Shown here in pieces: positions 3,639 through 14,726 of a stretch of DNA of 25,250 nt. A model generated the notes under the pieces. The model was not told the origin of the DNA. It did no database searches and was given only the letters and a program-made list of their open reading frames with translations. Positions within the stretch are counted from its first letter, which is position 1; each line of letters opens with the position of its first letter. The translations under genes and the position numbers were made by a program. The DNA comes from Candidatus Aenigmatarchaeota archaeon (GTDB lineage Archaea > Aenigmatarchaeota > Aenigmatarchaeia > Aenigmatarchaeales > Aenigmatarchaeaceae), in the NCBI GenBank assembly GCA_017608545.1, contig JAFCFQ010000001.1, positions 1 through 25,250 on the forward strand, read 5' to 3'.

Positions 3639-3660
3639 CTTTAAGAAATACATAGTGAAT

Positions 3661-3981
3661 ATGCAAAAGGCAAGAATAAAATTAATGAGTACAGATCCTA
3701 AGAAGCTAGATGAAGTTTGTAAAGAATTAAAAGCAATAACAGATAGGTTTGGTGTAGCCATGCGTGGCCCCATCCCATTACCAACAAAAAAACTAAAAGT
3801 TGTTACAATGAAAACTCCTTGTGGGGATGGGACAGGTCATGGAAATGCCACTTGGGATAGATGGGAAATGAGAATTCATAAAAGAGTTATTGATATTTCT
3901 GCAGATGAGAGGACATTAAGGCAAATAATGAGAGTAACAATTCCTGATGGAGTTTCAATAAGTATTCAATTAAGGGATTAA
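3661..3981 (+). CDS. rps10: 30S ribosomal protein uS10
   Basis: [34 protein letters not shown] 3661 preferred over GTG 3655. Confidence 0.98.
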
Positions 3982-4038
3982 ATTTATTTCTTGATTCATT
4001 TTAAATATAAAAAGTTCTATCAAATAACTATTCATTAT

Positions 4039-4137
4039 GCCGAGATCGCATAACCTGGTAGTGCGCTAGATTAATAAAGGCGAACCTGGAGAGCTAGTGG
4101 GCGAAAGCCCGTGTGGGTTCGAATCCCACTCTCGGCG
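4039..4137 (+). tRNA. tRNA-Ser(GGA) with 15-nt intron (4070-4084) at position 30/31; CCA not encoded
   Basis: Acceptor stem GCCGAGA/TCTCGGC, D stem GCAT/GTGC, T arm GTGGG-TTCGAAT-CCCAC, long variable arm GGGC-GAAA-GCCC, discriminator G73. Splicing gives CTAGC-CT-GGA-GA-GCTAG. tRNA-Ser after rps10 is known archaeal synteny. Confidence 0.93.
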
Positions 4138-4224
4138 CAAAATTTATTTTATACATTGTAAAAAGAAGAAAAAGAGATGAGTTTGCAAAATATCTTTAAA
4201 TAATTCATTTTCTTATCTTTCTTT

Positions 4225-4689
4225 ATGTTTGAGAAAACAGCAATGGTCATTGTAGCTAATATTTTACCTTCCCTTGAACAGCTAGGTGGTATACCATTAG
4301 GAATAGCACTAGGTTTAAATCCTATTTATGCTTTTTTAGTTTCTCTATCTGTTAATTGTCTTTTATTCTTTCCCGTTTATTTTGGATTAAAATTGTTTTA
4401 TAAAAGTTTAATATCAAAAATAAAACTTTTTAATAAGTATTTAGAAAGAGTTAGAAAAGTAGGTAAACCTTATGTAGACAAATATGGAATTATTGGGTTA
4501 ACTTTGTTCATTTCATTGCCTACTCCATTAACAGGAACTTATACAGCTTCGATTTTGAGTTGGTTTTTAGGTTTAGACTGGAAAAAATCTTTTCTTGCAA
4601 TAGCTTTAGGTTCTACTATAGGTGGAATAATTATTTTGTTAAGTTCTGTTGGATTTTTAAATGTCTTGAAGTTTATTTTGAATTTTTGA
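4225..4689 (+). CDS. Small multi-drug export family membrane protein (COG2426-like)
   Basis: EQLGGIPLG and FISLPTPLTGTYTA resemble the family motifs ELRGGIP and PLPGTGAWT. About 4 TM segments. TTTAAATA at 4195-4202. Confidence 0.8.
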   Translation: MFEKTAMVIVANILPSLEQLGGIPLGIALGLNPIYAFLVSLSVNCLLFFPVYFGLKLFYKSLISKIKLFNKYLERVRKVGKPYVDKYGIIGLTLFISLPTPLTGTYTASILSWFLGLDWKKSFLAIALGSTIGGIIILLSSVGFLNVLKFILNF

Positions 4690-4806: not shown

Positions 4807-5748
4807 ATGCCACAGAGAAAAAGACCTCAAAAAGGGAGTAAAGCATTTTTTCCTAGAAAAAGGGCTAGACGTATCTATCCGAGAATAAAATCATGGCCAA
4901 AAATTAAAGAAGTAAAACCTTTAGGTTTTGCTGGTTACAAGGCTGGAATGTCTCATGTGATATTGGTTGATACTAATCCTAACTCTCCATCAAAAGGTCA
5001 AGAAGTAGCGAAACCAATAACTATTCTTGATTGTCCTCCTATCTTTGTTTTAGGTTTTAGATGTTATACAAATAATAAATCTTCTTTTGATGTTTTTTCA
5101 GAAAAGTTTGACAAAAATTTATCAAGAAAATTAAAAGTTCCTAAAAAACCAAAAACTCTTGAGGAACAATTATCAAAACTACCAAAAAATATTACTAAAA
5201 TAAATTTAATTTGTCATACAAACCCTAGCTTTAAGAAAAAACCTGAAATTTTTGAAATTGCTCTAGGAGGTTCTGTTGAGGAACAGTTAAAGTATGCTAA
5301 AGAAATTTTAGGAAAAAAGATTAGAGTTTCGGATGTATTTAAAGAAGGGGATTTAGTTGATGTCGTTGCTGTAACAAAGGGTAAAGGTTTTCAGGGTCCT
5401 GTTAAAAGATTCGGAGTGAGAACTCATGGAAGAAAAGCTCAACAAATGCAGAGACATGTTGCTCCGTTGGGTCAAAATGAACCAGGAAAAGTTAGATGGA
5501 CAATTCCTCAGGCAGGTCAGGCAGGTTTTCAAACAAGAACAGAATTAAATAAAAGAATTTTGAAAATATCTAATGGTTTTAATGTTAAGGGTGGATTTGT
5601 AAATTATGGTAATATTTCTGGAGATTGTATTTTATTGGAAGGTTGCGTTTCAGGCTCTAAAAAAAGATTGATAAGATTAAGGTTTGCTATAAGACCTAAA
5701 AAAGTTTACCCAATTGAAATTAAACATATTCCAACAGAAAATAAATAA
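4807..5748 (+). CDS. rpl3: 50S ribosomal protein uL3
   Basis: FPRKRA, GYKAGMSH, TKGKGFQGPVKRFG, PQAGQAG. Confidence 0.98.
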   Translation: MPQRKRPQKGSKAFFPRKRARRIYPRIKSWPKIKEVKPLGFAGYKAGMSHVILVDTNPNSPSKGQEVAKPITILDCPPIFVLGFRCYTNNKSSFDVFSEKFDKNLSRKLKVPKKPKTLEEQLSKLPKNITKINLICHTNPSFKKKPEIFEIALGGSVEEQLKYAKEILGKKIRVSDVFKEGDLVDVVAVTKGKGFQGPVKRFGVRTHGRKAQQMQRHVAPLGQNEPGKVRWTIPQAGQAGFQTRTELNKRILKISNGFNVKGGFVNYGNISGDCILLEGCVSGSKKRLIRLRFAIRPKKVYPIEIKHIPTENK

Positions 5749-14109: not shown

Positions 14110-14726
14110 AAATAAAATTTTTAGGTCATTCGGCATTTTTGATCGATGATTTGCTCATAGATCCTTTTATTAAAGATAATCCAATTTGTCCTGTTAAAAT
14201 TGAAGATATAAAATGTAAAATAATTTGTATAACTCATGATCATTGGGACCATATAGGAGATTCTTTTGAAATAGCTAAAAATAACGATGCAACGTTAGTT
14301 GGAGTTTCTGATACAGTTAAAAAAGCAGAAGAAGTTGGAATAAAAACAGAACATATGAACATTGGAGGAATGGTAAAACTAGGGGACTGGGAAATAATTT
14401 TAGTGCCTGCAACACATTCAGGAAATCCAAGTGGTTTCATTTTGAAAAAAGATAAAACAGTTTATCATGCTGGTGATACTGGATTGTTTATGGACATGAT
14501 GTTAATAGGGGGTTATAATATTGATGTTGCTCTTTTACCTATTGGTGGAAGGTACACAATGGATATTGAACAAGCTGTTGAAGCATGCAAATTATTAAAA
14601 TGTAAAAAAGCTATACCAATGCACTATAACACTTGGGAGGTTATAAAAGCAAATCCAGAAGAGTTTAAGAAGAAGGCTCCTTGTGAAGTTATAATTTTAA
14701 AACCTGGAGAAGAGTTCGAGGTATAA
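14106..14726 (+). CDS. Metallo-beta-lactamase-fold metal-dependent hydrolase (UPF0173-like)
   Basis: LGHSAF, IDPF, THDHWDH (HxHxDH), HAGDT, LPIGG, IPMHYNT. Confidence 0.92.
   Translation: MKIKFLGHSAFLIDDLLIDPFIKDNPICPVKIEDIKCKIICITHDHWDHIGDSFEIAKNNDATLVGVSDTVKKAEEVGIKTEHMNIGGMVKLGDWEIILVPATHSGNPSGFILKKDKTVYHAGDTGLFMDMMLIGGYNIDVALLPIGGRYTMDIEQAVEACKLLKCKKAIPMHYNTWEVIKANPEEFKKKAPCEVIILKPGEEFEV

Follow-up and report, generated by a model that had tools for sequence, protein, structure and literature searches.

A tRNA-Ser(GGA) gene of Aenigmatarchaeota with a 15-nt intron at position 30/31 and a relaxed bulge-helix-bulge motif

The window analyzed here is a stretch of 25,250 nt from a Candidatus Aenigmatarchaeota archaeon, corresponding to contig C19 of the source assembly (557 kb in 118 contigs, 29% G+C, rated 83% complete). 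According to Rfam, the sole RNA gene in the window is a tRNA on the + strand at 4039-4137 (RF00005, 42.4 bits with a gathering score of 29, E = 5e-06, model positions 1-71). It lies between the genes for ribosomal protein S10 and a small membrane protein (Sm_multidrug_ex), with the gene for ribosomal protein L3 on the far side of the latter (Table 1). CCA is not encoded at its 3′ end. A TATA-box-like, A/T-rich stretch upstream of the gene is its putative promoter, and a similar A/T block is found at the matching distance upstream of tRNA-Ser in orthologs; a T-rich tract on the 3′ side may act as the terminator.

Table 1. Features of the tRNA-Ser(GGA) locus, in window coordinates; the last three lines give three of the 18 catalytic endA genes read from relatives
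Feature	Coordinates	Strand	Basis or remark
Ribosomal protein S10 gene, upstream neighbor, synteny anchor	3655..3981	+	PF00338, E = 6.2e-28
TATA-box-like A/T-rich stretch, putative promoter, about 26-39 nt upstream of the gene	4000..4013	+	From the sequence
tRNA-Ser(GGA) precursor body, position 1 to discriminator G73	4039..4137	+	Rfam RF00005 and cloverleaf score
5′ exon, positions 1-30	4039..4069	+	5′ halves of intron-less orthologs identical or near-identical
Acceptor stem	4039..4045 with 4130..4136	+	Cloverleaf layout
D-arm	4048..4064	+	Cloverleaf layout
G24, sole outer pair of the motif, with C32 (4086)	4063	+	G-C in 8/8; competes with the D-stem pair C11-G24
Central 4-bp helix, 5′ strand (C25 G26 C27 U28)	4064..4067	+	Pairs with 4082-4079; 4/4 pairs kept in 8/8 intron-bearing Ser tRNAs
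G26	4065	+	Cloverleaf layout
C27 U28 A29 G30	4066..4069	+	Cloverleaf layout
5′ 3-nt bulge, A29 G30 / A4070; predicted cut 4069/4070	4068..4070	+	AG/A in 8/8 homologous introns
Intron, 15 nt, position 30/31	4070..4084	+	Removal restores the anticodon stem; missing in six syntenic orthologs
Inner hairpin h′, 2 bp (4071-4072 with 4078-4077), loop 4073-4076	4071..4078	+	3-5 bp in orthologs
Central helix, 3′ strand (intron GGCG)	4079..4082	+	U28-G to U28-A in G025 (one-sided change)
3′ 3-nt bulge, A4083 A4084 / C31; predicted cut 4084/4085	4083..4085	+	AA/C in 6/8; AA/T and AT/C once each
3′ exon, positions 31-73	4085..4137	+	Read from the sequence, with cloverleaf fit
C31	4085	+	Cloverleaf layout
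Anticodon loop, C U G G A G A	4086..4092	+	Cloverleaf layout
Anticodon GGA	4088..4090	+	Same anticodon in orthologs
Positions 39-43	4093..4097	+	Cloverleaf layout
Discriminator G	4137	+	Cloverleaf layout
T-rich tract, putative terminator	4143..4150	+	From the sequence
Small membrane protein gene (Sm_multidrug_ex), downstream neighbor, synteny anchor	4225..4689	+	PF06695, E = 2e-26
Ribosomal protein L3 gene, synteny anchor	4807..5748	+	PF00297, E = 2.4e-71
endA of a same-genus relative (178 aa), locus L053	1273..1809		
endA of a relative, locus L066	1256..1792		
endA of a relative, locus L067	1337..1864		

Removing the intron joins G30 to C31 and leaves an 84-nt type II tRNA-Ser(GGA) with a complete cloverleaf (stems 7/7, 4/4 with one G-U, 5/5, and 5/5; cloverleaf score 28.0). 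The spliced anticodon stem has 5 bp, formed by 4066-4069 and 4085 with 4093-4097, and encloses a 7-nt loop with U33. A variable region of 15 nt with a 4-bp stem and a T-arm complete the molecule. Archaeal tRNA-Ser identity rests on a type II long variable arm, the discriminator G73, and a Ser anticodon, and the gene has all three: the long arm, G73, and GGA. Together with the Rfam match and the cloverleaf fit, these features confirm the tRNA-Ser(GGA) identity proposed in a preliminary description of this DNA, in which every base-level statement about the sequence proved correct.

The placement of the intron was scored with a script of our own, in which every deletion flanked by a motif resembling a bulge-helix-bulge (BHB) is rated by the cloverleaf fit of the remainder. 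The best deletion is 4070-4084, with a score of 28.0, and the next different intron placement or anticodon reaches 22.4; a tie at 28.0 is the same deletion with a further, spurious cut placed in the variable arm. The explicit cloverleaf score replaced a screen in which ARAGORN was run over all BHB-compatible deletions, since that program accepts too many spliced candidates (seven at this locus, with four different identities).

The intron lies within a BHB motif. Its two 3-nt bulges are on opposite strands and 4 bp apart, and the helix between them consists of C25-G, G26-C, C27-G, and U28-G, that is, three Watson-Crick pairs and one G-U pair. By the textbook rule, a BHB is cut after the second nucleotide of each bulge, and both intron borders fall at exactly these points. 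A strict hBHBh′ motif has outer (h) and inner (h′) helices of at least 2 bp each; in the present motif h′ has 2 bp, and h is the single pair G24-C32, followed by a U-U mismatch. Because its outer helix is only one pair, we class the motif as relaxed rather than strict.

Chance occurrence of this arrangement is rare. Among the 2990 combinations of a 5′ and a 3′ site in the 99-nt RNA, four have a 4/4 central helix together with an inner helix of 2 bp or more, and the combination that restores the cloverleaf is one of these four. When the 15 letters of the intron were shuffled 100,000 times, the motif returned at the splice sites with a frequency of 0.00064.

The computed fold energies qualify the strength of the motif. 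The best fold with the BHB enforced has −32.2 kcal/mol, compared with −38.6 kcal/mol for the unconstrained, cloverleaf-like minimum, and the BHB conformer has a share of about 3e-05 in the computed ensemble. The preliminary description held that the precursor folds into a well-formed BHB. Its anatomy of helices, bulges, and outer pair is right, and since the BHB fold lies 6.4 kcal/mol above the minimum, "well-formed" is true of the helix and bulge geometry and not of thermodynamic dominance. Its further statement that the junction of the D-stem and the anticodon stem has to refold agrees with the competition between C11-G24 and G24-C32 and with these energies. On the model calculations, the enzyme would have to capture or induce the BHB conformer.

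The strongest support for the intron comes from comparison with related genomes. We searched 61 genomes, comprising the source genome and 60 related ones and including all 21 genomes of the source genome's family, with the 99-nt sequence, and 29 of them (the source genome included) gave a match. In 10 relatives the tRNA-Ser gene is flanked by the rpS10 and membrane protein genes, and rpL3 is also seen at five of these 10 loci. Six of the 10 (G002, G003, and G004 of the same genus, and G017, G018, and G020) carry an intron-less, 84-nt tRNA-Ser at this locus, which at the intron site matches the predicted exon-exon junction letter for letter. The remaining four (G001 of the same genus, G009, G014, and G019) have an intron of 18-21 nt at 30/31 whose helix and bulges are the same. 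The exact borders 4070-4084 claimed earlier for a 30/31 intron are thus borne out twice, by the restored cloverleaf and by the junction in the intron-less orthologs. Rfam scores are 55.5-59.5 bits for the intron-less orthologs and 39.5-40.3 bits for those with a single intron, compared with 42.4 bits for the gene in the window. Two of the intron-bearing orthologs have more than one intron: the tRNA-Ser genes of G001 and G009 are also interrupted at 8/9, and that of G009 a third time in the T-loop.

Homologous 30/31 introns occur in three further Ser isoacceptor genes (GCU in G019 and G024, and CGA in G025), and in two other Ser tRNAs (of G013 and of the Aenigmatarchaeota record L082) the intron sits at 29/30 and the helix is displaced by a single base. 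In all eight Ser introns at 30/31, the central helix reads C-G, G-C, C-G, U-G (U-A once), and the inner hairpin has 2-5 bp; the motif in the window, with one outer pair and two inner ones, is the weakest of the eight. Across these eight tRNAs, 97.1% of 70 pair cells are paired, compared with 38.6-65.7% when the partners are slid. The inner helix shows compensatory changes from U-A to C-G at two pairs. Conservation and these two compensated pairs point to a motif under selection, in a small sample of eight related sequences. Between 19 and 29 of 500 shuffles equal or exceed the observed covariation, a modest outcome that is to be expected of eight related sequences. In the central helix, we found no two-sided covariation among the eight intron-bearing Ser tRNAs, so this helix is backed by conservation and not by compensation.

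In G019, the Ser-GGA (L021) and Ser-GCU (L049) genes are almost the same in their 30/31 introns (21 and 19 nt) and in their 5′ exons, and the Ser-GCU ortholog in G020, of the same genus as G019, has no intron (L029). Such a pattern would fit an intron that spread from one isoacceptor gene to another by gene conversion.

The ribosomal protein L3 encoded in the window has its closest named relatives, at 84-85% identity, under the labels "uncultured archaeon" and "Candidatus Aenigmatarchaeota archaeon," and more distant relatives (47-73% identical) are labeled Aenigmatarchaeota. A ribosomal protein L3 66% identical to that of the window is encoded on a 4.7-kb contig (L079) that bears the label "Candidatus Aminicenantia bacterium"; this contig is probably archaeal and was misbinned with a bacterial genome.

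Rfam detects 19 tRNA genes in the source genome, of which 18 are distinct, two matches being the same Leu(GAG) gene at contig ends. By our scan, seven have no intron (Val-UAC, Asp, Arg-CCU, Leu-GAG twice, Pro-CGG, and His) and five have one intron at 37/38: Val-GAC (14 nt), Ala-GGC (11 nt), Gly-CCC (14 nt), Arg-GCG (13 nt), and Met (33 nt, ambiguous between 37/38 and 38/39). Three have one intron after position 30, namely, Thr-UGU (20 nt), Leu-CAA (36 nt), and Ser-GGA (15 nt), and a further three (Gly-UCC, a tRNA with the anticodon UAU, and Gln-CUG) have two introns, after positions 29 and 37. Lys-CUU falls outside the fit of the scan. An intron at 29/30 or 30/31 is therefore present in six of the 19 genes, and the Ser-GGA intron is typical of its genome. 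The other five tRNAs with introns at these positions have three or four of the four central pairs. The scan relies on our own script, and Leu-CAA (3/4 central pairs), Met, and Lys are its weaker cases, read without an ortholog check. Rfam overlooks orthologs that have two or three introns, and the genome therefore probably conceals additional tRNA genes with heavy interruptions.

The tRNA-Lys(CUU) gene (contig C54, about 14506-14640, − strand) has an apparent 8/9 intron of ∼22 nt with 4/4 central pairs and some 15 extra nucleotides in the variable region, and the first 8 nt of the tRNA stand twice in tandem just upstream. The tRNA-Ser genes of G001 and G009, which have 8/9 introns, likewise have the 5′ strand of the acceptor stem repeated upstream. 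These upstream repeats may be a trace of how introns insert. The introns of tRNA-Met (C55:2387-2494) and Leu-CAA (C1:2639-2760) interrupt their tRNAs at different positions (37/38 or 38/39 in Met, 30/31 in Leu) but have a stretch of 17 nt in common, with 16 identities, which may point to a shared origin or to the transposition of an intron.

At the DNA level, four sequencing runs were compared with the locus; contigs cover 3805-4097 and 4076-4238, and those of two runs cover the intron. No joint in them spans the intron, and these contigs thus contain no intron-less DNA variant. The genome encodes an RtcB ligase (E = 4.9e-125). The RtcB gene is split into overlapping frames of 140 and 306 aa (contig C35:1407-2736, − strand), a frameshift or an assembly error; depth in the DNA runs is only about 3-6.

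We detected no gene for the splicing endonuclease EndA in the source assembly: PF01974 has no match there even at E ≤ 10, and neither tblastn with three same-genus EndAs nor a beta-subunit profile returns anything. The sole weak match to TIGR00324 (C112, E = 0.015; C112:227-1540) is a 437-aa DNA methyltransferase (PF01555 and PF01170) and not an EndA. The two genes that flank endA in relatives, for a 183-aa protein on the upstream side and a CBS protein of 379 aa on the downstream side, are missing from the assembly too, apart from weak partial matches elsewhere. Because the assembly is 83% complete and the whole syntenic neighborhood of endA is missing, a gap in the assembly is the likely explanation.

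PF01974 is found in 56 of the 61 genomes searched (counting the source genome, which has no match). The four same-genus genomes each have one endA gene, coding for 175-178 aa in the three that we read; in G004, a frameshift divides the gene. A second EndA subunit is found in none of the four, where the beta-subunit profile picks out just the one gene. Tandem endA genes occur in the seven sister families of the order and in two genomes of the window's own family. In the four tandem pairs read, the order is beta-alpha, the upstream copy being beta-like and without the catalytic His, and in the other genomes of the family that we read, three of the window's genus included, an alpha-type gene stands alone at the same place. 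This distribution suggests that the structural subunit was lost in the window's family.

The EndA of G003 has the PF02778 and PF01974 domains and finds its best matches among solved structures in the alpha4 EndA of M. jannaschii (E = 4e-33) and the catalytic subunit of N. equitans (E = 2.2e-31). Between the catalytic Tyr and His, the same-genus enzymes have a Lys-rich insertion of seven residues, in common with N. equitans alpha and ARMAN-2 (3IEY_A, 4FZ2). Kaneta et al. (2018; PMC5829648) use the name L3 for an insertion of this type and describe alpha4-type EndAs bearing it in several DPANN lineages with heavy disruption of tRNA genes. Judged by their sequences, the relatives fit this L3-alpha4 picture, with a single alpha gene, N- and C-terminal domains, an insertion near the catalytic His, and heavily disrupted tRNA genes. 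Unlike the five solved archaeal EndAs in our alignment, all of which have the canonical catalytic Lys, each of the 18 catalytic EndAs of the class that we read has Ala, Ser, or Thr at this position, whereas the Tyr, the His, and an insertion of the form K-(K/R)-G-P-K are conserved in all 18. The lysines of the insertion might take over the role of the catalytic Lys. We saw no mention of a replaced catalytic Lys in our reading of PMC5829648.

These observations change the picture of the enzyme given in the preliminary description, which expected the genome to encode an alpha2beta2 or epsilon2 EndA on the premise that non-canonical introns occur mainly in lineages with these forms. Two subunit genes, or one three-unit gene of ∼390 aa, would mark such an enzyme; the source assembly has no detected endA, and each same-genus relative has one short gene of the alpha type. 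The assignment to alpha2beta2 or epsilon2 is therefore unsupported. What stands of the expectation is a type of enzyme linked to tRNA disruption, in the form of the relatives' single alpha-type gene with a loop like that of Nanoarchaeum and ARMAN-2, and the classification applies to these same-genus relatives. The premise itself was too narrow, because PMC5829648 also ties L3-loop alpha4 EndAs of DPANN to heavy tRNA disruption.

Taken together, we put the probability at about 92% that 4039-4137 is a functional Aenigmatarchaeota tRNA-Ser(GGA) gene with a 15-nt, protein-spliced intron at 30/31, in the 5′ strand of the anticodon stem. The gene, the borders of its intron, the motif, its conservation, and the absence of the intron from orthologs are direct observations; cleavage, ligation, and the enzyme responsible are predicted from the sequence. 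A decaying or non-functional copy, in which the 15 nt are an unspliced insertion that enlarges the anticodon loop, would sit well with the minimum-free-energy fold, in which the cloverleaf persists (4-5-bp stem, 22-nt loop) and no BHB forms, as well as with the failure to detect endA in the assembly. We nevertheless regard decay as highly improbable: the 19 detected tRNAs include no other for Ser, the gene lies in a conserved ribosomal-protein locus with all its other stems intact, the inserts of seven other Ser tRNAs keep the helix and bulges and show compensatory changes in the hairpin, and eleven other tRNAs of the genome also require splicing.

The least probable alternative is an intron located elsewhere in a tRNA of different identity, either Arg(GCG) with a 7-nt intron, which is what ARAGORN calls when introns are allowed, or a tRNA with an intron in the loop and the anticodon UAA or AAU. 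Rfam indeed places a 20-nt insertion in the anticodon loop, and brute-force use of ARAGORN accepts alternative deletions (Leu-taa, Ala-agc, and Leu-gag), but these alternatives have at most three of the four central pairs and cloverleaf scores of no more than 22.4, the long variable arm and the discriminator G fit Ser and not Arg or Ile, and the intron-less orthologs at the locus show the exon bases directly. As improbable as decay, in our view, is a genuine 30/31 intron that is recognized through a bulge-helix-loop or the shape of the mature domain instead of the two-bulge motif. The retention of 3-nt bulges 4 bp apart in 8/8 homologous introns, and also in the 29/30 variants, is what BHB recognition predicts, even though the outer helix is a single pair, the motif is thermodynamically minor, and the EndA of the relatives is unusual in its single subunit, its L3-type loop, and its replaced catalytic Lys.

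With a spliced tRNA-Ser(GGA) as the preferred reading, processing could proceed as follows. In the precursor, nucleotides 25-28 would leave their cloverleaf partners and pair with the GGCG of the intron, forming the 4-bp helix between two 3-nt bulges of a relaxed BHB. The archaeal splicing endonuclease EndA would then cut at 4069/4070 and 4084/4085, after the second nucleotide of each bulge, and the RtcB ligase would join the exons. Refolding of the anticodon stem and the D-stem would give the 84-nt mature tRNA, to which CCA would be added afterward.

The kind of intron found here is already known, and the mechanism is a textbook one. The review PMC4090602 includes 29/30 and 30/31 among the published positions of non-canonical archaeal tRNA introns and reports BHB introns at these positions in Crenarchaeota/Thermoproteales and Nanoarchaeota. 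The present intron resembles those covered by the review in its anticodon-stem position, its shortness, and its two 3-nt bulges 4 bp apart, as well as in the presence of canonical 37/38 introns and multi-intron tRNAs in the same genome. It differs from them in its host, a member of the Aenigmatarchaeota (DPANN), and in that its presence or absence varies within one genus at a syntenic locus. According to the same review, tRNA-Lys(CUU) is split at 30/31 in N. equitans and Staphylothermus; the point of disruption and the processing logic are the same as here, but the halves of our gene are contiguous, separated by a cis intron, and are not separate genes.

With respect to motif classes, PMC5829648 sets a relaxed BHB (HBh′) against the strict hBHBh′. 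The motif in the window has the central helix, both bulges, and the inner h′ of the relaxed form, and with an outer h of one G-C pair it is neither the textbook strict form nor one that lacks a bulge. PMC5829648 mentions the phylum Aenigmatarchaeota once, and our literature search turned up no paper on tRNA intron positions in Aenigmatarchaeota.

The gene is easily lost to standard tools. ARAGORN in default mode reports no tRNA in the window, and with introns allowed it reports tRNA-Arg(gcg) with a wrong 7-nt intron, i(35,7), much as the preliminary description had anticipated in warning that annotation may miss or miscall the gene. Rfam recovers it with the lowest score of the genome's 19 tRNA matches, and the G001 and G009 orthologs, with their extra introns, fall under the gathering score and go unreported. 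The low count of 19 detected tRNA genes in a genome rated 83% complete is explained in part by default tRNA finders, which overlook such genes or give them the wrong label.

Our results add a documented non-canonical 30/31 tRNA intron in Aenigmatarchaeota, with borders that are set by intron-less orthologs and therefore go beyond motif prediction. At one syntenic locus, members of a single genus either have or lack the intron, and this variation provides material for the study of gain and loss of archaeal tRNA introns. A joint reading of all these observations, which we offer only as a speculation that is rather unlikely to hold in full, would have a young family of introns moving between Ser isoacceptor genes (GGA, GCU, and CGA), gained or lost at a fixed locus within a genus. 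Alongside it, a class-wide EndA would process relaxed motifs, with its catalytic Lys replaced and the K-(K/R)-G-P-K insertion supplying positive charge, and the structural beta subunit would have been shed in the window's family. If true, this EndA would combine broad specificity with a single subunit and a rewired active site.
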